This document shows, piece after piece, positions 3,980 through 60,575 of a stretch of 64,000 nucleotides of DNA. The DNA comes from a virus. A program made the position numbers and the translations under genes. A model generated the notes under the pieces. The model saw only the letters and a list, made by a program, of their open reading frames with translations. It searched no databases and had not been told where the DNA came from. How positions within the stretch are numbered: the first letter of the stretch is position 1; every line of letters starts with the position of its first letter. The DNA lies in the IMG/VR virus record IMGVR_UViG_3300025132_000021, positions 1 through 64,000 of that record; one strand, written 5' to 3'.

Positions 3980-4309
3980 ATGAAACTAAATCAATATCAA
4001 AGACACGCCAGAGAAACTGCAATCTACCCAGAGCAAGATGCTCTCATTTATACCGTCCTCGGACTCACAGGAGAGTCAGGAGAAATTGCTGAAAAAGTAA
4101 AGAAACTTCTTCGTGATAACAAAAGTTTAGACATGACTGAAGATGTGCGTAATGAACTTATTTTAGAACTTGGCGATGTGCTTTGGTATGTAGCAAACTT
4201 AGCACATGAACTTGGTGAAACTTTAGAAGATATTGCAGTAGCCAATATCCAGAAATTAGAAAGTCGTAAGATGCGTGGTGTGCTATCAGGTAGCGGAGAT
4301 AATCGCTAA
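3980..4309 (+). CDS. mazG: MazG-like NTP pyrophosphohydrolase
   Basis: LGLTGESGEIAEKVKK...ELGDVLWYVANLA...NIQKLESR. Confidence 0.9.
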   Translation: MKLNQYQRHARETAIYPEQDALIYTVLGLTGESGEIAEKVKKLLRDNKSLDMTEDVRNELILELGDVLWYVANLAHELGETLEDIAVANIQKLESRKMRGVLSGSGDNR

Positions 4310-5769: not shown

Positions 5770-5780
5770 TTTAAGTATCA
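5770..5780 (+). promoter_or_regulatory. TTTAAGTATCA promoter box
   Basis: 30 nt before ATG 5800. Confidence 0.8.
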
Positions 5781-5799: not shown

Positions 5800-8514
5800 A
5801 TGGTTAGACGCTATGAGGTTTCAGACCTTGATGTTGAAGACATCATAGTATTTGCCCCTAATGCTCATTTGGATTTAGGTTATACACCTTATCCATCGCT
5901 TTTTGAATTAGAGCAAGAAATCTTAGCAGGCGTTCACACTAATTCATCTGGAGAAATTGGTTGCCCTGCTTGCGGTTGTATTGATTTATTCTTGAAAGAA
6001 AGAACTGCGAAAGGAGTTCGTTATCGTTGTATGTCTTGTATGTATGCTACTGAATCGGAGTTTGAATCTGTTAAATCTCGCAAAGACATAACTTTAGCAC
6101 AATTTGGTTTAGGCTTTGAGTGTGCAATATGCGGTGAGGACATAGATTCTTATAATCACGATACAGTTATGCGTCATGTGCGTAAATGTCGTCAAAAAGA
6201 AAATGAAAACTTTTCTGCGGAAAACATGATGTTAGAATTAGGACAGCAAGACCCAGACGACCCAAACAGAATGTGGGGTCCAGACATTATCAGCCCGATA
6301 TTTCCCTTCAAAGGTTATGAAAGACCCACGGAAGAAGTAAGAGCAGATTTACAAAAACATTTGGTTGGACTGGAAATCAGAATGTATGGTCCTCAAAACG
6401 AATCCGAGGCATTAGGCATTAGACAACCGATGGATTGGTGGAAAGATATTGGTTTCAGTGAGTTTCAACCAGCAGGAACTATGGGAAGAGTCACAGGAGT
6501 TTCCATGTCTAACCCAAACCGACCAAAAATCATTGGAGTATGGGTAACTATCATCAGTGGAGGCACGGCCAAACACCCTGTTGGTTCAAGAGTATGGTTT
6601 CATGTTAAAGATTCCTATTTTCCTGATTCTATGAGGCTTGGTTGGACACACGGAGATTATGTCGGCAATCCCAAGAGAGAAGAATACCTAAGAGGCAAAG
6701 GAATTACTAAAGGTTATGAAGCAGAAGATAAACCAGTAGTCCCTCGTTATGTTTATCATGCCACTCCTCAAGCATATTGGGAACAAATTAAGGAACAAGG
6801 TGGCATGACACCACAAATTGGCTACATGACATATCGGGCATTTTTACCCAGATACAAAAAAGCCCACATTGGTCAAGACATTTCTCCTGAACACTATAAA
6901 CAATGGTTGGTTAAGGAACTTGGAGGTCTGAAAATCTGGGTTACTGGACCAAGCAAGGTATCGGTGTATGCCAGTATGATTGAACCCATGAGTTTCTTAC
7001 GAGACAATGTAGTTTTGAAAATTGATACAGAAGGTTTAGACTTTGAATACTATAATTACGATGAGTTTTTTACGCAAAAACCAATCCCCTTGTCTGCGAT
7101 TGAATTAGAGTGGTTGATGGACGGTGAGCGAAGTGATGAAGAATACCCTGATTATTTGTTGCCTACTCTTGACCCTTCATTAGAATCCCTGTTAGAAGAC
7201 GAACCTGAATTGTTGGAAACTCACCCAGAGTTGTTCCGAGATGAACTTTATGAAAGATTTGTGGCGGCGGCTGAAGATAACCAAAGTGATGATTTAATCT
7301 GGGACGAAGAAGCAGGTTTGTTTTACGATTATGTAGAAGTGCCACAACCCGATGGTGAACTCATTGTGGTTTATTGGATTCTCAACGAAGAATTAGACCA
7401 AGTAGGAAAAGCACAAATAAGCCTATTCAACGATAATTTGGAAATTGACAGTATTTTCATTGAACCTTACTATCAACGCCGAGGAATCGCCACTTCATTT
7501 GTTAATCATGTAGTCAATTATTGGGACAGCGAACTTTTAAGATTTTCTGATGCTGTATCTGATGAGGGCGCAGCATTCATTGATTCATTCGCTGCTGAAG
7601 ATAGTTTAGACTATATGAACTATCTCAATGATTTACGAACTTATCCTGAACTACGAAACTTTACTGATGAGCAACTGCTGGCTATGGGTATTGATTGTTT
7701 AGCATTACAAACTGCCAACCGAGAAAAGTTTGATGCTGAAGATAACTACGATTCTACTTATGGAGTCAAGCAAGCCAAAATCCGCAGACGACTCAAAAAG
7801 AAAATCAAGAAGCAGGCAATTATGGGAACAAAGGCGGGTCAATGGTCGGCTCGTAAATCACAAGAACTTAAGCGACAATATGAGGCAGCGTGTCAGCGAG
7901 CAGGTCTAAAACCATACAAGGGTCAGAAAACCAAAAAGCAACAAGACCTTACGGATTGGTCAGACCAACGCTGGCGCACAGCATCAGGTAAAAAATCATC
8001 TACCACAGGCGAGCCATATTTCCCTGCTAAAGCAGTGGCCGCCCTCAAACAAAAAGGACTTTATTCAAAGGCCAAAAAACAGAAACAAGCCGCCACTAAA
8101 GCAGGCAAACAAAATGCCCGCTATTCCGATGACATTAGAAAAGTTGTTAAACAATATCGTAGTGAAAATATGCTTAATCTAAGCATAAATCCATTTGAAG
8201 ATGTAAAATGGGAAGATGATGAAAGTTTAACAGATAGATTAAGGAGAGAAAATGATTCATGGAGAGAAGATATTCAGTGGAAGGCTTGGGAGTCAAAACC
8301 AAGTAAGTTATCAAAAACTTTTATCTTTGAAGAAGAAGAACCATGGATAGAACTTTGGAATCTGGTGTTCTTTTCTGATGCTTTGGCTGAAGCCTCTGGA
8401 GTAGATATTGAATCAGTTGTCAAACAAAATAAAGTTATCATAACTATTGATAAGACAACCACACCACTTGACTTTGTATTATTAGAATACATCAATGAAT
8501 ATATGAGGTTATAA
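5800..8514 (+). CDS. 904-aa multi-module polyprotein-like protein: Zn fingers, ADP-ribosyltransferase-like, GNAT and DUF5872-like basic modules
   Basis: CPAC/CMSC/CAIC..H..C; YVYHATP..IWVT..VVLKID; IDSIFIEPYYQRRGIAT; GTKAGQWSARKSQELKRQYE; modules separated by FSAE/YEAE/AAAE/FAAE/FDAE/YRSE. Confidence 0.75.
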   Translation: MVRRYEVSDLDVEDIIVFAPNAHLDLGYTPYPSLFELEQEILAGVHTNSSGEIGCPACGCIDLFLKERTAKGVRYRCMSCMYATESEFESVKSRKDITLAQFGLGFECAICGEDIDSYNHDTVMRHVRKCRQKENENFSAENMMLELGQQDPDDPNRMWGPDIISPIFPFKGYERPTEEVRADLQKHLVGLEIRMYGPQNESEALGIRQPMDWWKDIGFSEFQPAGTMGRVTGVSMSNPNRPKIIGVWVTIISGGTAKHPVGSRVWFHVKDSYFPDSMRLGWTHGDYVGNPKREEYLRGKGITKGYEAEDKPVVPRYVYHATPQAYWEQIKEQGGMTPQIGYMTYRAFLPRYKKAHIGQDISPEHYKQWLVKELGGLKIWVTGPSKVSVYASMIEPMSFLRDNVVLKIDTEGLDFEYYNYDEFFTQKPIPLSAIELEWLMDGERSDEEYPDYLLPTLDPSLESLLEDEPELLETHPELFRDELYERFVAAAEDNQSDDLIWDEEAGLFYDYVEVPQPDGELIVVYWILNEELDQVGKAQISLFNDNLEIDSIFIEPYYQRRGIATSFVNHVVNYWDSELLRFSDAVSDEGAAFIDSFAAEDSLDYMNYLNDLRTYPELRNFTDEQLLAMGIDCLALQTANREKFDAEDNYDSTYGVKQAKIRRRLKKKIKKQAIMGTKAGQWSARKSQELKRQYEAACQRAGLKPYKGQKTKKQQDLTDWSDQRWRTASGKKSSTTGEPYFPAKAVAALKQKGLYSKAKKQKQAATKAGKQNARYSDDIRKVVKQYRSENMLNLSINPFEDVKWEDDESLTDRLRRENDSWREDIQWKAWESKPSKLSKTFIFEEEEPWIELWNLVFFSDALAEASGVDIESVVKQNKVIITIDKTTTPLDFVLLEYINEYMRL

Positions 8515-8516
8515 GC

Positions 8517-9308
8517 ATGAAATCTGCTTCAGTTGTTTTCGTTACCGCCGATAATCTGATAGGTTTAGGACTTCGTGGAAGTGGTTTAGAATCTCCTTTG
8601 ACATGGGCTGCCATAGGAGGACATCAAGATGATTATGAAACATTACATCAAACAGCCCATCGTGAAGTTTGGGAAGAATTAGGAATTAGAGTTCCCAATC
8701 GTTTAGAATACTTAGGTCATGTTGGAGAAAATTATGTTTTTGTTTGTCGTGTTCCAGATACATTTTCGGTGCGTTTGAATTGGGAGAATCTTGACTTTCA
8801 ATGGAAAACTTTATCAGAGTGGCAAAACCATAAACTACACCCAGAACTGCGTCAAGTGATTCATTCACGCACATTCTTGGCAGAACAGGAGTTTGAAGCC
8901 ATGCCTGAAGAAACAGAAGGTTATTATGGATTTCCTAATGAAAAAGGTGAGTTTGCAGACACAGAAAAGTGGCTCAAAGAGAATTACTTTCCCAAAGACC
9001 CAGACAGTTATTACGATTACGAACCCAAGACTCGTGAAGTAGAACTCCCAAGAGGAGGGACTAAAAACTTTCCTATTAACTGGTGGTTCATCTCGCAAAA
9101 CCTTGAGTTCTGGGAGACCATTCTTGGAATCCCATTCACAGGTAAAATCCCCAAAGTTAAGCAAAAGAAGAGAGTCCGTGGTCCGCACGAGTCTTTCAAT
9201 CCATTTGCACCACAAGCAAAAAAGCAACGAACATCAGATTATTTAGATGAAATTATGAGGCAAAGGCAACAACGACTTTATGATGATTTGAGAGAGTGGG
9301 AAAAGTGA
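8517..9308 (+). CDS. NUDIX hydrolase fused to an unknown C-terminal module
   Basis: Nudix box GGHQDDYETLHQTAHREVWEELGI; junction FLAEQEFEA. Confidence 0.85.
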   Translation: MKSASVVFVTADNLIGLGLRGSGLESPLTWAAIGGHQDDYETLHQTAHREVWEELGIRVPNRLEYLGHVGENYVFVCRVPDTFSVRLNWENLDFQWKTLSEWQNHKLHPELRQVIHSRTFLAEQEFEAMPEETEGYYGFPNEKGEFADTEKWLKENYFPKDPDSYYDYEPKTREVELPRGGTKNFPINWWFISQNLEFWETILGIPFTGKIPKVKQKKRVRGPHESFNPFAPQAKKQRTSDYLDEIMRQRQQRLYDDLREWEK

Positions 9309-10606: not shown

Positions 10607-11107
10607 TTAGAAGAGAGGAGAACAGCCGTTCTCATACCATAGTGGTGATTCTTCTTTCCACCGAGGGCCACTTCCACGATTCATATATCCTTTGCCCAGA
10701 TTGTAATAGTTTCGGTAAGACATTACTGGGTCATCTTTGACCTTAAACTTGTCTGGCATACACACTACAAAAGGTTGTAGTTTGCCCGCAGGTATGTATT
10801 TAGCCTTGCTAATACAATGCTCAATTACGGCTTGGCACTTGTGTTCTCGGCCATAGCGACGAGTGTATTCTCGGCACAATTCCATGCCGTGTTTGCCCAG
10901 CCAAAGGAAGTTTTCACGAGTTGCTGAAGCCCATTTAGTGCATGGGTGCGATACATGAGTTGGACCATATTTGGTGCTACGGTATTTGTGGTTTTGTAAA
11001 GCCGTGCATAACATTTGGGCTGTTTCAATTGGCATCTTAACGGTATGCCGATTGCAGAGTTGTCGGGCAGCAGCACGAGGGTCGGAATCTACGATAAAGA
11101 TATTCAT
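10607..11107 (-). CDS. Pyrimidine-dimer DNA glycosylase (T4 endonuclease V-like family)
   Basis: MNIF...HTVKMPIETAQMLCTA...HPCTKWA...EYTRRYG...SYRNYY. Confidence 0.8.
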   Translation of the reverse strand: MNIFIVDSDPRAAARQLCNRHTVKMPIETAQMLCTALQNHKYRSTKYGPTHVSHPCTKWASATRENFLWLGKHGMELCREYTRRYGREHKCQAVIEHCISKAKYIPAGKLQPFVVCMPDKFKVKDDPVMSYRNYYNLGKGYMNRGSGPRWKEESPLWYENGCSPLF

Positions 11108-11346: not shown

Positions 11347-12174
11347 TCAACTCTGATAATCAGGACACCACCAAGTCCTACGGCGGTCTGGAGTTTCCTC
11401 TTGAACAACTTTATGTCCATGTTTAGAAACTCTTTTGGAATAGCATTCAAACTCAAAACGGTAATCACCAGTGCTACCATCAGGCAACACATAATCACGA
11501 ATAGTAGCCCCACGACAGTCATAAGAGGCATTGATTACAAAAAGAGTCTGGTCATAAATGGCTCGTAAATTATCGTCCGTGAGTTCTTCTACACTATGCC
11601 ATGGACTAACCTTAGCACGATAGAGAACTTCTGCTTTGATATAGTTTCCGATGCCTGAAACCACCTTTTGGTCCATTAGTGCTTTGGTGATATTCCAATG
11701 GTTTTTCTTTCGTAGACGCATCACGAACTCATCAAAACTCGGAGGGTCATTAAGCATATCAGGACCAAGCGTAGCCAGTTTCTTATCCAGCGTAGAATTA
11801 TCCTTGTGGAAAATCTTGAAAGTTCCAAACCGTCGTGTATCACGATAGTAAGTCAATTTACCATCTAAGGTTTCTAACTTGAGCATCACATGATTCTTTG
11901 GGTTGTAAGTTCTCCAAGTCCCACTCATACCTAATGTATGCCAAATCTCCCATTCACCACCATTTAGTGTGAACCAGATAAACTTTCCTTTACAGTTGAT
12001 ACCATCAATCTTTAATGGTTTATCATCTAATACTGCCCTCAAATCGTGGATTTGGTCTCGCACCTGTTTAGAGCAATAACTCTCATTCTCAAAATGAATT
12101 GCACGCAATTCTTCCCCCGCCAACCGCTTATTCAAACGCTCAACAATACGCTTTACTTCAGGACCTTCAGGCAT
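11347..12174 (-). CDS. mutM: Fpg/Nei DNA glycosylase/AP lyase (zinc-less finger type)
   Basis: N-terminal MPEGPEV, KGKF, HTLGMSG, DTRRFG, LGPD, LMDQKVVSGIGN; start 12174 is 31 nt after TTAATAAG. Confidence 0.93.
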   Translation of the reverse strand: MPEGPEVKRIVERLNKRLAGEELRAIHFENESYCSKQVRDQIHDLRAVLDDKPLKIDGINCKGKFIWFTLNGGEWEIWHTLGMSGTWRTYNPKNHVMLKLETLDGKLTYYRDTRRFGTFKIFHKDNSTLDKKLATLGPDMLNDPPSFDEFVMRLRKKNHWNITKALMDQKVVSGIGNYIKAEVLYRAKVSPWHSVEELTDDNLRAIYDQTLFVINASYDCRGATIRDYVLPDGSTGDYRFEFECYSKRVSKHGHKVVQEETPDRRRTWWCPDYQS

Positions 12175-12200
12175 ACATAAAGTATGTAATATCACTCTTA

Positions 12201-32122: not shown

Positions 32123-34153
32123 ATGACAAATACAAACACAGATACAAATAGATTTACACTTTCAGATAATTTCGTAACTAAATACAAGAGGAAAAAAGCA
32201 CCTTTTGGATTCAACGGATTAGGAGAGTTAGTTTATCATAGAACCTATTCTCGTATGAAGCCAGATGGTAAAAACGAACAATGGTGGGAAACAGTTCAAC
32301 GAGTTGTAGAAGGCACATTCAATATGCAAAAGCGACACATTGATGCACATGGTTTGGGTTGGAATGCTTGGAAAGCCCAACACTCGGCACAACAAATGTA
32401 TGACCGTATCTTTAACATGAAGTTCCTTCCACCGGGTCGTGGACTATGGGCTATGGGAACACCAATCACTGAAGAAAAGAAACTTTTCGCAGCCCTGAAC
32501 AACTGTGCTTTCGTATCTACTGAAAACTTCAAAGGTGAGTTCTCCTCGCCTTTTTGTTTCTTGATGGATGCTTCTATGCTGGGTGTTGGAGTAGGTTTTG
32601 ATACCAAAGGTGCTGGCACTTTAATTCTCAAAGGTCCAAACGAACAACGCCGTAGTGAACTATATGAAATCCCTGACACTCGTGAAGGCTGGGTAGAGTC
32701 CCTCCGACTATTGTTAGATTCCTATGCTCAAGGCACAGGAGAAATTGAGTTTGACTATTCAGCAATCCGTCCAATGGGAGTTCCTATTCGTGGATTCGGT
32801 GGTGAATCATCAGGACCAGAACCCTTGATTGAACTGCACCAAACAGTTCGTTCTATTCTTCTTCACGAAATTGGCAAACCAATTTCACTCACTGCTATTG
32901 TAGACATTATGAATCTAATTGGCAAGTGCGTAGTTGCTGGAAATGTGCGACGCACAGCAGAAATTGTCTTTGGAGAGCCAGATTCAGAAGAATACCTTGA
33001 CCTTAAGAATTATGAGGTCAATCCCCACCGAGCCGAATATGGTTGGACTTCTAACAACTCTATTTTCGCAGAGGTTGGAATGAATTATGAACCTGCTGCC
33101 GAGCGTGTTCGCTACAATGGTGAACCCGGTTTTGCATGGCTTCACAATATGAAAGCCTATGGCCGAATGGCAGATGCCCCAAATTGGAAAGACCGCCGAG
33201 CCACAGGTGGTAATCCTTGTTTGGAACAAACTTTAGAATCCTATGAACTTTGTTGTTTGGTAGAAACTTTCCCTAACAACCACGATTCAGTAGAAGATTA
33301 TTTGGAAACTTTGAAATATGCTTATCTTTATGCTAAGACCGTAACTTTGGGGCAAACCCATTGGCCTGAAACCAACCGAGTTATGCTTAGAAATCGTAGA
33401 ATTGGTTGTTCCATGTCAGGTATTGCCCAATTTGTTGCTAACAAAGGATTAGGAGAACTACAAGCATGGATGGATAAAGGCTATGCCCACATTCAAAAAC
33501 TTGATGAAAACTATTCTGATTGGATGGCTATTCCTCGTTCTATCAAAACTACTTCTATCAAACCATCAGGAACAGTTTCTCTTTTGGCAGGTGCTACACC
33601 GGGTATTCACTTCCCCGAATCCAGATACTACATTCGTCGTATGAGATTGGGCGTAGGTTCAAATCTCGTTCCAGCCCTTGAGAAAGCAGGATACAAACTT
33701 GAACCTGCTTTTGGTTCAGAAGAAACTACTTTGGTAGTTGAAATCCCTGTTGATGTAGGAGAAGGTGTTAAAACTCTTGATAATGTTTCTATGTGGGAAC
33801 AACTTGGTATGGCATCTTTGGCACAACGCTATTGGGCAGATAATCAAGTATCTTGCACCGTAACTTTTGACCCAGAATCAGAAGGCTCTCAAATTGCGGC
33901 GGCTCTTGACCAATTCCAATATCAACTCAAAGGTATTTCTTTCTTGCCCCGATTAGACTTGGGTGCATATCCACAAATGCCTTATGAATCTATTGATGAA
34001 TCTACTTACCATGAAATGAAAGCACAACTTGGAAAACTTTCTTTTGGTCGTATCAAGGGTGAAGAAATCGTCGTAGAGCGTTTCTGCGATAATGATGTTT
34101 GCGAAATTGATTTTAACCCCGTAGATAATGAAGAAGTTAATGCTCAACTATAA
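32123..34153 (+). CDS. nrdJ: Class II (B12-dependent) monomeric ribonucleoside-triphosphate reductase
   Basis: FLPPGRGLW, LNNCAF, GNVRRTA, NPCLEQ, TSIKPSGTVS, C-terminal FCDNDVC. Confidence 0.96.
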   Translation: MTNTNTDTNRFTLSDNFVTKYKRKKAPFGFNGLGELVYHRTYSRMKPDGKNEQWWETVQRVVEGTFNMQKRHIDAHGLGWNAWKAQHSAQQMYDRIFNMKFLPPGRGLWAMGTPITEEKKLFAALNNCAFVSTENFKGEFSSPFCFLMDASMLGVGVGFDTKGAGTLILKGPNEQRRSELYEIPDTREGWVESLRLLLDSYAQGTGEIEFDYSAIRPMGVPIRGFGGESSGPEPLIELHQTVRSILLHEIGKPISLTAIVDIMNLIGKCVVAGNVRRTAEIVFGEPDSEEYLDLKNYEVNPHRAEYGWTSNNSIFAEVGMNYEPAAERVRYNGEPGFAWLHNMKAYGRMADAPNWKDRRATGGNPCLEQTLESYELCCLVETFPNNHDSVEDYLETLKYAYLYAKTVTLGQTHWPETNRVMLRNRRIGCSMSGIAQFVANKGLGELQAWMDKGYAHIQKLDENYSDWMAIPRSIKTTSIKPSGTVSLLAGATPGIHFPESRYYIRRMRLGVGSNLVPALEKAGYKLEPAFGSEETTLVVEIPVDVGEGVKTLDNVSMWEQLGMASLAQRYWADNQVSCTVTFDPESEGSQIAAALDQFQYQLKGISFLPRLDLGAYPQMPYESIDESTYHEMKAQLGKLSFGRIKGEEIVVERFCDNDVCEIDFNPVDNEEVNAQL

Positions 34154-38652: not shown

Positions 38653-40365
38653 ATGAACAAAGAAAATAAACTAAAGAAGACATTTTTAACGATTTTAACA
38701 GCAATTATGCTTGCTATGAGTGCAGGTGTAGTTACTGGTGAAGGTTCCGACCCTCTTGACCCATCAGACGGTGGCGCAGATTGGGATGGCGACGGTTTGA
38801 CTAACAAAGAAGAACAAGACGCTGGAACTAATATGAACAACCCAGATTCAGACGGTGATGGACTCCCAGATGGTTGGGAAGTTGCTAACGGCCTAAATCC
38901 AACTAACGGTGGCGATGCTAACGGCGACCCAGATGGAGATGGTCTAACCAACTCTCAAGAATATGCACAGGGAACTAACCCAAACAATGCCGATACTGAC
39001 GGCGATGGCAAACCTGATAACACAGATGCCTTCCCTAACGACCCTAACGATGGAGAATACTCCGACTCCGATGGAGATGGAATCCCAGACGCATACGACC
39101 CAGATTATCAAGAGTCCCAAGCGGGTTCTGGTAATGGAGGCACAGAAGGCGGTGGCGAGTCTGAAGACAATGGACAAGGCGAAGGCCAAGGTCAGGGTCA
39201 AGGACAGGGACAAGGACAAGGACAGGGGCAAGGCCAAGGCCAAGGTCAGGGTCAAGGTCAGGGTCAGGGTCAAGGACAGGGCCAAGGTCAAGGACAAGGA
39301 CAAGGGCAGGGCCAAGGACAAGGGCAAGGCCAAGGTCAAGGTCAAGGACAGGGACAGGGCCAAGGCCAAGGTCAGGGTCAAGGACAAGGCCAACAACAAG
39401 GTCAAGGTCAAAGTCAAGGACAAGGACAACAAGGACAACAAGGCCAGCAAGGAAACCAAGGACAACAAGGACAGGCTGGACAACAAGGCCAACAATCTGG
39501 ACAACAAGGTAACCAAGGTCAGCAAGGCCAACAAGGGCAACAAGGTCAGCAACAAGATAACGGGCAAGGCCAGCAACAACAAGGAGGTCAGCAAGGCGGT
39601 CAGCAATCTGAACAACAAGCAGAAGAACAGAACGGCCAAAACCAAAATGGTGCTAACCAACAACAGCAAGGTCAAACCCAGAATGGTCAGCAAGGCCAGC
39701 AAGGTCAGCAAAATGACCAGCAACAAGGCCAACAGTTGGATAATCAAGACCAAAATGGAGATAACGACAATGATGGCGACGGTATTCCTGATGACTTAGA
39801 CAATGATGATGATAACGATGGAATCCCAGATACTATGGATGATTCACCTCAAGACCATGATAACGACGGCATTGATGATGCTGAAGATAATGATGATGAC
39901 GGAGATGGAATCAACGATAATGAAGAAGTCAATGATGGCAACGACAACACAGATATTTATGACCACGACAATGACGGTATAGAAGACCGTTTTGACTTTG
40001 ACATTGATAATGACGGAATTGACAACTGGAATGACCTGTATGAAAACGGGTCAGATGCCAGCCGAGACCACGACAATGATGGTATGGACGATGGTGTAGA
40101 CACAGACGACGATAACGACAACATTCTTGATGTTGATGAAATCGGCGGTGCTTGGTCTTCCTATCGCTACGACCATGATAACGACAACATTTGGGATGCA
40201 ACAGACCTTGATGATGATAACGATGGTCTATCAGACTGGTTTGAGAACAATGATGGCAACGATATGACAGGTCAATTTGACCATGACAACGATGGCGTTA
40301 GTGATTACTTAGACCTTGACGATGATGGCGACGGTATTCTGGACGAGTTTGAAAACGGCGTTTGA
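38653..40365 (+). CDS. Secreted protein with TSP3-like Ca-binding DxDxDG repeats flanking a Gly-Gln low-complexity domain
   Basis: Signal peptide; DSDGDG/DHDNDG/DDDNDG repeats; (GQ)35 then Q/G/N-rich. Confidence 0.85.
   Translation: MNKENKLKKTFLTILTAIMLAMSAGVVTGEGSDPLDPSDGGADWDGDGLTNKEEQDAGTNMNNPDSDGDGLPDGWEVANGLNPTNGGDANGDPDGDGLTNSQEYAQGTNPNNADTDGDGKPDNTDAFPNDPNDGEYSDSDGDGIPDAYDPDYQESQAGSGNGGTEGGGESEDNGQGEGQGQGQGQGQGQGQGQGQGQGQGQGQGQGQGQGQGQGQGQGQGQGQGQGQGQGQGQGQGQGQGQGQGQGQQQGQGQSQGQGQQGQQGQQGNQGQQGQAGQQGQQSGQQGNQGQQGQQGQQGQQQDNGQGQQQQGGQQGGQQSEQQAEEQNGQNQNGANQQQQGQTQNGQQGQQGQQNDQQQGQQLDNQDQNGDNDNDGDGIPDDLDNDDDNDGIPDTMDDSPQDHDNDGIDDAEDNDDDGDGINDNEEVNDGNDNTDIYDHDNDGIEDRFDFDIDNDGIDNWNDLYENGSDASRDHDNDGMDDGVDTDDDNDNILDVDEIGGAWSSYRYDHDNDNIWDATDLDDDNDGLSDWFENNDGNDMTGQFDHDNDGVSDYLDLDDDGDGILDEFENGV
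39184..39393 (+). repeat. (GGN CAR)x35 coding repeat (Gly-Gln)
   Basis: 210 nt with synonymous codons mixed. Confidence 0.9.
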
Positions 40366-59204: not shown

Positions 59205-59240
59205 GAAAGTTTAAGTAGTTGAAGCCCATAAGGGATAGTG

Positions 59241-60575
59241 ATGACGGCTGGTTATTACGAAAAACCCGGTGGGGCTAATTTACCTCCAGAATTAGTGACT
59301 GCTGCTAATCGTTTGCGAGGCATCAATGGTTTAACTAACAAAATTGTTATTGTTCCTTCGGCCATGCACGAAGCCTACACTAATATGACTTACATTTCTC
59401 TATCAGGAGATTATCTTTCTATGGCTATGGAGGGAAACTATCATGGTTATCCAGAAAAACGCCTCCGTGAAGATTTAGATTTCGTTATTCAACACGAGAT
59501 TGGACATTTGAATATCCACCCCGGAGTTGCAGGCGGCGGTTGGAAATCCGAAATTGAAGCCATGCCCGTTGAAGGCAATAAAAAGGGTCAATGGTCTAAT
59601 GTATTATCTGATGTTATCGTCAATTACAACGCAGCCAATGGAACTCAATTGACAATTGGAGGCAAAGAAAAACTGGCCGAAGTTGCTCGTATGAGTAAGG
59701 CTATGTGGAATGCTTATGGAGGAGGATTCCGTAGTTGTTTTGATGGCTCTGCTAAAAACATGGGTTGTATTAAGCATCGTGAACTTCTTGATGCAGGAAA
59801 ATTAGTAGATAATCGCTACAATAACGGTCGTTATGACCCTCACGCCGCAGGAAATCCATATCTTGCAGCCGAAGATACACCAGAGTTTCAAAAATTATTG
59901 GGTCATGGTCGTGCGCCGCAGTTATATCCTGCTATTGCTCATTGTGTGGCTAACAAAATGCCTGTTGGCACAGATATGGGACCGGGAATGGGTCAATCCA
60001 GAACTGTTCAAGATTACCCAGATAATTGGAAACAAGTTAAACTTTTGGCTTCATTAGACATAGAATACTCCCCTAATGCAGATAAATGGTTGGGTTATAA
60101 CCCAACCCCCGGTAGTTGCCCCCTAACAGGAGGCTCAACTGAAAAAGTAGGTTCAATTGGTGCTGGTGAGTATCAAGTAGTGGCTACTCGCACTTATGAT
60201 GGAATAGAAAATCCAAAAAATGTTAGACCCATTGAGTTTTTCAAATTACGAAATGGAAGCAAAGATATTTGGGTTCCAGCCCACTATTGTATTAGCAAGT
60301 GTCCTCATTGTGGTGAGCCAGCAGCGAGTCAGTTTCAACTGGGCATGGGCTACAAACCAGCCCTCGCAGGACTGGTGGGTAGAGGAGATATAGACCAAGA
60401 CACAATTTCTCAAATTGAAAACAGCAAACTTTACAATGTTTTACTTTGTAATCTTAATGCAGGACTCTATGCTACATCTCAAGAAGGTTTTGATGGTAAA
60501 ACTGGACGAGATGCAGGAATAGCCTTTTTGAATGCTTGTGCTTGGGACAGACACCTATGTATGATTGGACGGTGA
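59241..60575 (+). CDS. Zincin metallopeptidase (vWA-associated type) with Zn ribbon
   Basis: QHEIGH...NVLSDVIVN; CPHC; TTTAAGTAG at 59210. Confidence 0.75.
   Translation: MTAGYYEKPGGANLPPELVTAANRLRGINGLTNKIVIVPSAMHEAYTNMTYISLSGDYLSMAMEGNYHGYPEKRLREDLDFVIQHEIGHLNIHPGVAGGGWKSEIEAMPVEGNKKGQWSNVLSDVIVNYNAANGTQLTIGGKEKLAEVARMSKAMWNAYGGGFRSCFDGSAKNMGCIKHRELLDAGKLVDNRYNNGRYDPHAAGNPYLAAEDTPEFQKLLGHGRAPQLYPAIAHCVANKMPVGTDMGPGMGQSRTVQDYPDNWKQVKLLASLDIEYSPNADKWLGYNPTPGSCPLTGGSTEKVGSIGAGEYQVVATRTYDGIENPKNVRPIEFFKLRNGSKDIWVPAHYCISKCPHCGEPAASQFQLGMGYKPALAGLVGRGDIDQDTISQIENSKLYNVLLCNLNAGLYATSQEGFDGKTGRDAGIAFLNACAWDRHLCMIGR

Follow-up and report, generated by a model that had tools for sequence, protein, structure and literature searches.

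We analysed 64,000 nucleotides of viral DNA (the window), which form the left 64 kb of a 160,342-bp IMG/VR virus record, IMGVR_UViG_3300025132_000021, with inverted terminal repeats (99 bp exact). One open reading frame (ORF) in the window, P0001, encodes a chain of 904 amino acids (aa) that is built from unrelated modules, with the same kind of short peptide, which we call the joint, at each module junction. The joint is the exact site of insertion, deletion and permutation of whole modules between closely related genomes. Position P4 of its consensus is hydrophobic, in most cases aromatic; P2 is Ala or Ser, P1 is Glu or, rarely, Asp, and the prime side is free. We judge, at slightly better than even chances, that P0001 is a polyprotein assembled from cassettes, belonging to a large marine virus that has inverted terminal repeats and encodes DNA polymerase D (PolD), and that the chain is cut at the joints into separate proteins. 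The ORF, its modules and its joints (↓, module boundary) are as follows.

5800..8514, plus strand: P0001, modular ORF of 904 aa and candidate polyprotein (open frame, translation); the frame is continuous, with no internal stops.
5800..6222 (aa 1-141), plus strand: module 1, two zinc-ribbon/C2HC-like units recognised by CxxC pairs in the sequence, ending in FSAE.
6223..6726 (aa 142-309), plus strand: module 2, lineage-specific and partly beta-rich by sequence search and model, ending in YEAE.
6727..7275 (aa 310-492), plus strand: module 3, predicted ADP-ribosyltransferase (ART)-fold core (~aa 318-445) and acidic tail (AlphaFold model mb043cb5c4a8a), ending in FVAAAE.
7276..7599 (aa 493-600), plus strand: module 4, GNAT acetyltransferase (Pfam PF00583), ending in FAAE.
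7600..7740 (aa 601-647), plus strand: module 5, acidic helical unit of 47 aa, recognised by its movement among relatives, ending in FDAE.
7741..8166 (aa 648-789), plus strand: module 6, basic and DUF5872-like (PHROG 14910, Pfam DUF5872), ending in YRSE.
8167..8511 (aa 790-904), plus strand: module 7, acidic Trp-rich spacer (790-829) and predicted unit like pterin-4a-carbinolamine dehydratase (PCD)/DCoH (~825-904; model m3cf0080f7954).
6211-6225 (aa 138-142), plus strand: joint FSAE↓N, with FSAE at 6211-6222.
6715-6726, plus strand: YEAE of joint YEAE↓D (aa 306-310).
7258-7275, plus strand: FVAAAE of joint FVAAAE↓D (aa 487-493).
7588-7599, plus strand: FAAE of joint FAAE↓D (aa 597-601).
7729-7740, plus strand: FDAE of joint FDAE↓D (aa 644-648).
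8155-8166, plus strand: YRSE of joint YRSE↓N (aa 786-790).

The six motifs lie exactly where a preliminary description of this DNA had placed them, and a single consensus covers all module junctions of P0001 (6/6). The chain contains six [AS]E[ND] triplets in total, every one of them at a joint and preceded by F or Y. The pattern [FY]x[AS]E[ND] was seen 5 times against 0.10 expected, and the wider [FY]x(1-3)[AS]E[ND] 6 times against 0.27 expected; none of 3000 shuffles gave a count as high in either case, so that the enrichment over shuffled sequence anticipated in that description is present. The pattern was defined post hoc, after inspection of the P0001 sequence, and for this reason the shuffle tests weigh less than the breakpoint and genome-wide tests given below. 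The preliminary description also stated that N or D always follows the Glu, which is true of P0001 and fails in its homologues, where the next residue is E, S, I, D, T, N or G. Internal initiation at the joints was rejected because Met does not consistently come after them.

We detected 120 homologues of 515-1536 residues in a word-indexed search, most of which have just one or two modules in common with P0001. The ends of their BLAST alignments on P0001 cluster at aa 141, 490/491, 596/597, 646 and 789/790. Varied upstream modules, each with its own version of the motif (FAAE, NLGAE, MMSAE, YHSE, FAAD, LEAE), adjoin one same downstream module. When 121 proteins were compared all against all, the right ends of high-scoring segment pairs fell exactly on the E or D of hydrophobic-x-[AS]-[ED] 407 times, compared with 57 expected and with 68 at position -1. 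In a breakpoint logo made independently of the motif, 123 of 252 pile-ups broke at E, with A or S at -1, Y, F or L at -3 and a variable next residue. Cutting 125 proteins at the motif and clustering the pieces gave 112 architectures and 167 piece families. Module order is not conserved, the 47-aa module being found before or after GNAT, and the DUF5872-like module, present in 115 of the 120 homologues, has 34 kinds of left neighbour and 25 kinds of right neighbour. Pfam modules in 45 diverse homologues included Cu/Zn superoxide dismutase (SOD; 9), pterin dehydratase (11), PolX (7), LigD 3′-phosphoesterase (4), GNAT (7), NUDIX (2) and PPPDE peptidase (2), with NUDIX lying inside the homologous chains P0090 and P0099. 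Cu/Zn SOD and PCD, enzymes known to act as separate oligomers, stand mid-chain in some relatives. In the homologue P0055 (1137 aa) a five-module block is tandemly duplicated, with piece families 2, 18, 19, 23 and 24 each present twice; multi-module blocks, not single modules alone, can therefore be copied.

Four contigs from independent assemblies (L004-L007) carry the gene in the same neighbourhood, with lengths of 689, 796, 796 and 851 residues; the positional orthologues of P0001 in independent assemblies have 689, 796, 851 and 740 aa. L004 and L005 match the window at 95-99% DNA identity and L007 at 82-92%. Compared with L004, the window has two extra modules, and the alignment breaks at 6222/6721 and 7601/7734. 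These breaks fall within the GCN-GAA codons of FSAE/YEAE and FAAE/FDAE, with overlaps of 6 and 9 nt: module 2 is lost exactly motif-to-motif in L004, where module 5 is also missing. In L005, two other modules take the place of module 3, with breaks at 6723 and 7271, and the 47-residue module 5 stands before the GNAT module, not after it. Residue-by-residue alignment of the proteins gave the same picture as the DNA breaks. We conclude that L004-L007 and the window came to differ recently, by cassette events that were precise, in frame and located at the joint. The preliminary description had looked to related contigs for gain or loss of modules exactly at the motif, and the breaks within motif codons in L004 and L005 are of this kind. 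Its proposal that the motif is a standard joint for module turnover is likewise borne out, by homology breaks at the motif Glu, by indels in the motif codons and by the 112 architectures, and covers gain, loss and permutation.

The motif is enriched far beyond P0001, and what is conserved in it is the peptide. The whole genome has 92 copies of [FYW]x[AS]E where 48 would be expected (z 7.1), and the counts were flat for control patterns in which P1 was K or Q, P2 was G or T or the motif was reversed. The homologues hold 506 copies against 125 expected, a count from related sequences that are not independent of one another. At 91 [FYW]x[AS]E sites the choice of codons for Ala, Ser, Glu, Phe and Tyr is typical of the genome; at the six joints of P0001 the Ala and Ser codons are GCG, GCA, GCT and AGT. 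Because the motif codons follow genome usage, selection acts on the peptide and not on the DNA, and a purely DNA-level recombination signal was rejected on this ground. Outside the window, at positions 88671-96364 of the whole record (G000), hydrophobic-x-[AS]-E-[ND] is abundant in a run of ORFs (675, 503, 177, 266 and 483 aa). For two of these ORFs the pattern gave p=0 in 300 shuffles, and the run had no structural annotation in PHROG or Pfam.

Pfam, PHROG and fold data, together with the architectures of the relatives, support the view, already taken in the preliminary description, that P0001 consists of unrelated modules, and these prove independently movable; of the labels given there, zinc-finger, ART-like and DUF5872-like are supported and GNAT is confirmed. 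The first comes directly from the sequence of module 1, for which Pfam zinc-finger matches are weak; a ZNF592-like zinc finger was matched by Pfam in 12 of the 45 homologues. Counterparts of module 1 in relatives are N-terminal, internal or C-terminal, and the C-terminal copies are without the motif tail: a zinc module that comes last in its chain ends in ...KKCGVPK, with linker and motif missing. Modules 2 and 3 together had 21 matches among 1.84 billion cluster representative proteins, all from this virus group, and no fold match to module 2 was found with Foldseek or VIA-align. The core of module 3 is confidently modelled, with a predicted local distance difference test (pLDDT) score of 80-92. 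VIA-align matched it to KptA (Z 9.7), CC0527/DUF952 (Z 9.2) and mouse Tpt1 (Z 8.0), the other rows among the top 50 were mostly ADP-ribosyltransferase or related NAD-dependent toxin folds, and Foldseek concurs. These model comparisons support an ADP-ribosyltransferase fold for module 3, Tpt1/KptA-like and assigned by fold; a YHAT motif is visible by eye near the module start.

Module 4 matches PF00583 over aa 502-574 with an E value of 2e-4 and 22.0 bits, against a cut-off of 20.7. Module 6 matches PHROG 14910 at E 4e-12, and its Pfam match to DUF5872 (PF19197; E 1.7e-4, 22.6 bits) is below the cut-off of 27.5; DUF5872 was matched in 40 of the 45 homologues. The pelagiphage relatives of module 6 are small stand-alone proteins that align with it. 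In Pelagibacter phage Lederberg (L008:508-935) the DUF5872-like counterpart is split into two adjacent ORFs of 59 and 82 aa, the second of which ends in ...RRYRSFT, like the YRSE joint. The C-terminal unit of module 7 has the topology beta-beta-alpha-beta-beta-alpha, and Foldseek aligned it to pterin-4a-carbinolamine dehydratase/DCoH with probability 1.0 (TMt 0.55-0.71, root mean square deviation 2.0-2.8 Å, ~80 residues), at a local pLDDT of just 60-73. Pfam PF01329 has no match in P0001, and true PF01329 modules are present in 11 of the 45 homologues.

Structure models were made from two-part alignments (A5 and A7); MAFFT alignments A1, A4 and A6, of shuffled full-length sequences or mixed fragments, misaligned several modules. 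In the AlphaFold model of aa 142-492, YEAE lies in a seven-residue stretch with pLDDT <50 that separates the final helix of module 2 from the strand with which module 3 begins. The model of aa 470-904 has a mean pLDDT of 52, its GNAT part is not confidently folded, and it seems too weak to say much about linkers. The earlier expectation that the motifs fall in linkers is thus supported for YEAE, in the usable model, and the weaker model adds little on the others.

The surroundings of P0001 combine archaeal-type replication genes with genes for DNA repair. A gene for the large subunit of archaeal DNA polymerase D is present in the genome (Pfam PolC_DP2_N, E 2.7e-69), and in a more distant relative the orthologue of P0001 has TBP and the small subunit of PolD nearby. 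CheckV gave a completeness of 65% despite the 99-bp exact inverted terminal repeats, an estimate that is probably unreliable for an undescribed lineage. The features around P0001 are as follows.

5770..5777, plus strand: promoter-like (TATA-like) box TTTAAGTA, 23 nt upstream of the P0001 ATG.
3980-4309, plus strand: MazG, by synteny with L004-L007.
8517..9308, plus strand: NUDIX gene (Pfam NUDIX, E 7.9e-12), starting 3 nt past the P0001 stop codon.
10607-11107 and 11347-12195, minus strand: pyrimidine-dimer glycosylase (Pyr_excise) and Fapy/H2TH glycosylase, by synteny with L004-L007.

The TTTAAGTA octamer occurs in 25 copies in the window, all on the plus strand, against 3.4 expected. Most copies are 20-35 nt upstream of ORF starts (further sites are at, for example, 36166, 41240 and 59210), and an archaeal TATA-like promoter with short or no leaders would fit this arrangement. 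Gene order in L004-L007 is MazG, three small ORFs, the P0001 counterpart, NUDIX and a 200-aa ORF, then on the opposite strand the pyrimidine-dimer glycosylase and the Fapy glycosylase; by this synteny P0001 lies in a cluster of genes that repair DNA or sanitise nucleotides. The range of modules (SOD, PolX, LigD phosphoesterase, NUDIX, Tpt1-like fold) and the neighbouring genes are no less suggestive of repair or detoxification than of an attack on the host. The preliminary description had called the products effectors, a label that may be wrong, as the repertoire and the neighbouring MazG, NUDIX and glycosylase genes fit repair and detoxification as readily; packaging of the products into the virion and their delivery to the host are speculation. 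Elsewhere in the window are an ArsA/Get3-family ATPase (46473-47618; E 3.5e-61), a class II (B12-dependent) ribonucleotide reductase (32123-34153) and a 570-aa protein with bacterial TSP3 repeats (38653-40365).

We read the joint as a protease site because a code at P4, P2 and P1 with a free prime side recurs at every boundary of units that are separate elsewhere, the order of the units being immaterial. Cleavage at the joints is inferred from this pattern, and we put its probability at a little over one half. In the mechanism that we propose, seven apparently independently folding modules would be made in one chain, each ending in a joint, and an endopeptidase would recognise the joint on its N-terminal side and cut after the Glu. 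Cutting would release separate proteins, among them probable nucleic-acid binders (the zinc-finger and basic DUF5872-like modules) and enzymes (ART-fold, GNAT and PCD-like). The short joint-coding repeats (GCN GAA GAY) would provide 6-9 nt of microhomology, which could allow in-frame recombination of cassettes. The protease might, in one sublineage, be the chain's own C-terminal HExxH module; in the virus studied here it would be trans-acting, viral or host.

That sublineage comprises 28 homologous chains (among P0030, P0031 and P0051-P0085) that end in a conserved HExxH...E module of ~150 aa. A regular-expression search found WHE[LI]GH in 28/28, and in 17 aligned sequences (A8) the HExxH residues and two downstream Glu (EEFAES) are invariant. 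One of the 28 is the positional orthologue in a 158-kb relative (L010:7001-9223). The module matched no Pfam or PDB family and may, from its sequence, be an undescribed zincin. P0001 itself contains no HExxH by the same kind of search, and so no embedded zincin-like peptidase module. The genome holds a sole HExxH protein:

59238..60575, plus strand: candidate trans-acting protease, found by regular-expression scan, behind a TTTAAGTA box.

This ORF matched no Pfam family; its Atlas lead, to DUF2201_N with a score of 0.76, is weak, and a Pfam scan of the genome for DUF2201_N was empty. A MoxR-like ATPase adjoins it. A JAMM-like ORF (G000 123193-123999) gave a weak Pfam match to DUF4329 alone, and a phmmer search of it against PDB returned nothing relevant.

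Several findings weigh against cleavage. Pfam scans of the genome for Trypsin_2, S78, S77, C48, Prok-JAB, DUF2201_N and S49 were empty, and control genomes were matched in these scans; a very divergent prohead protease could escape them. This genome lacks the HExxH module seen in the homologues, and the ORF at 59238 shows no homology to that module beyond the HExxH letters. Some joints read F-[ES]-A-P (FEAP↓YQP), with Pro in place of Glu and a module beginning with YQP next; a strict P1-Glu enzyme should not cut these, and recombination through similar short sequences fits them better than a strict P1-Glu site. Y-R-S also occurs at the end of the DUF5872-like module in the stand-alone pelagiphage homologues, and part of the YRSE joint is therefore native to that module. 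The low-confidence model of aa 470-904 places the motifs at the C-terminal ends of helices, followed by a break, and not in long loops. Finally, convincing single-module stand-alone genes were sought among shorter proteins and none was found, the matches being mostly frameshifted or truncated gene calls, a result that speaks neither for nor against the independence of the modules.

The main alternative is that P0001 works uncleaved, as a multi-domain ('polyvalent') protein in which the motif is a linker convention and a recombination scar. One chain would then carry several activities, cassettes would be swapped where the codons of the joint provide microhomology, and the peptide would persist as a harmless helix cap and linker. 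The 6-9 nt of microhomology in the motif codons at the breakpoints, the F-x-A-P variants without Glu, the motifs at predicted helix ends and the protease searches that identified none in the genome all agree with it, and some polyvalent proteins, such as the N4 virion RNA polymerase, are packaged unprocessed (PMC5512222). Against it, the amino acids of the motif are kept and the choice of codons is free, so the DNA repeat is not the conserved thing, and a hydrophobic P4, small P2 and Glu P1 with a variable prime side resemble a protease subsite code. A chain that stays whole is also harder to square with scrambled module order, with oligomer-forming enzymes in mid-chain and with genome-wide enrichment of the motif outside the P0001 family. 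We regard the uncleaved chain as possible but doubtful.

A binding or sorting tag, one per module, for example a peptide on which a chaperone or assembly factor of the virus docks (a MoxR/vWA system or a capsid-targeting receptor), would explain why the motif is repeated and conserved as a peptide and why many further ORFs that follow the same promoter-like box are enriched in it, and a MoxR-like ATPase does adjoin the HExxH ORF. Such a tag need not sit at exactly every module boundary, however, loss of the motif in C-terminal modules would be left unexplained, and no result here indicates a receptor; we think this explanation improbable. That the long ORF is an artefact of assembly or gene calling, fusing separate genes, has nothing but its unusual architecture to recommend it and is refuted, because the same and variant chains recur in a continuous frame, with all junctions in frame, in many independent assemblies (JGI, ENA, NCBI, Logan).

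Cleavage at the joints may also be part of a broader 'plug-and-play' arrangement, which we put forward tentatively. A single endopeptidase specificity (aromatic-x-Ala/Ser-Glu↓) would be common to many genes, the codons of the site would double as in-frame recombination joints, and any captured enzyme with joints on both sides would be expressed and released, and possibly also loaded into the particle.

Polyvalent proteins of phages and conjugative elements were described by Iyer, Burroughs, Anand, de Souza and Aravind in 2017, and those of phages are predicted to be self-processed by zincin domains (PMC5512222). Like P0001, they are virus-encoded chains of unrelated, often enzymatic, domains (2-15 of them) with highly variable architecture. 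A zincin-like peptidase domain, for which processing of the chain is predicted, is often among these domains, and the 28 homologues might use their HExxH module likewise. P0001 differs in being without a peptidase module of its own and in a host system that is archaeal-type, not bacterial, and the repertoire of its family (SOD, PolX, PCD, DUF5872) leans to repair and detoxification. ART- and NUDIX-type enzymes are reportedly within the theme of the polyvalent-protein study. We know of no junction motif common to modules that has been described for polyvalent proteins.

Head-maturation proteases also cut after Glu in short motifs, T4 gp21 at L/I-x-E and phiKZ gp175 at S/A/G-x-E, and T4 Alt, an ADP-ribosyltransferase, is a packaged and ejected substrate of head-protein processing. 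The joints of P0001 share with these sites a short motif, Glu at P1 and determinants on the non-prime side, and several head-protease substrates are packaged and ejected. The prohead protease gp245 of SPN3US cuts after A-X-E (PMC10052503). Head-protease motifs have the small residue at P3, whereas the P0001 joints have it at P2 and an aromatic residue at P4; and head proteases mostly trim N-terminal propeptides, whereas in our reading a chain of enzymes would be cut apart. The analogy with head maturation drawn in the preliminary description is weakened by the lack of structural PHROG matches among 19 large ORFs of the genome and of a Pfam-detectable S77 or S78 prohead protease in the whole genome.

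Among eukaryotic viruses, pp220 and pp62 of African swine fever virus (ASFV) are cut by pS273R at GG↓X and adenovirus precursors by adenain at (M/L/I)XGG↓X, and ASFV PolX is a repair enzyme carried in the virion. Like our reading of P0001, these are precursors of double-stranded DNA (dsDNA) viruses with a short cleavage consensus, a hydrophobic P4 (adenain) and basic, DNA-binding core products. Their consensus is Gly-Gly and their protease belongs to clan CE, whereas the P0001 joint is Ala/Ser-Glu and the Pfam scan found no C48-like family in the genome; their polyproteins are structural and of fixed architecture, whereas the P0001 family consists of shuffled enzyme cassettes. Polymorphic toxins offer another likeness, the VENN motif of CdiA being their pre-toxin joint: in both cases recombination exchanges cassettes at a point that a short conserved peptide marks. 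Polymorphic toxins have a single joint each, and their C-terminal cassette alone varies, whereas chains of the P0001 family have at least six joints each, every position varies and the joint codons are unconstrained.

P0001 differs from the polyvalent, head-processing and ASFV/adenovirus kinds in having one peptide joint at every boundary, module turnover between near-identical genomes, archaeal-type replication genes and no protease recognised in the Pfam scans. No published description of such a joint-shuffled chain was found in the literature searched; the population evidence at the level of the gene, the fold assignments and the sublineage with the HExxH module are new here. Should cleavage at the joints be real, it would be, to our knowledge, the first case of polyprotein processing described for a large dsDNA virus whose replication genes are of archaeal type, and it would show how a virus can exchange whole enzymes within one gene and leave that gene intact. 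If the joints are not cut, P0001 would still be an unusually clear natural case of in-frame domain shuffling at a defined peptide joint. Near-identical genomes that differ just by whole modules at the joint make processing directly testable; FDAEDNYDSTYGVK is an example of a tryptic peptide that spans a joint of P0001. The joint also supplies a practical rule for splitting hundreds of unannotated giant ORFs of marine viruses into functional units. The list of modules (SOD, PolX, LigD phosphoesterase, NUDIX, Tpt1-like fold, GNAT), standing beside UV-repair glycosylases, points to needs in sunlit surface water. Should the tentative plug-and-play reading be true, a previously undescribed lineage of large archaeal-type viruses would capture cassettes at the level of protein, by a logic like that of integron cassettes.

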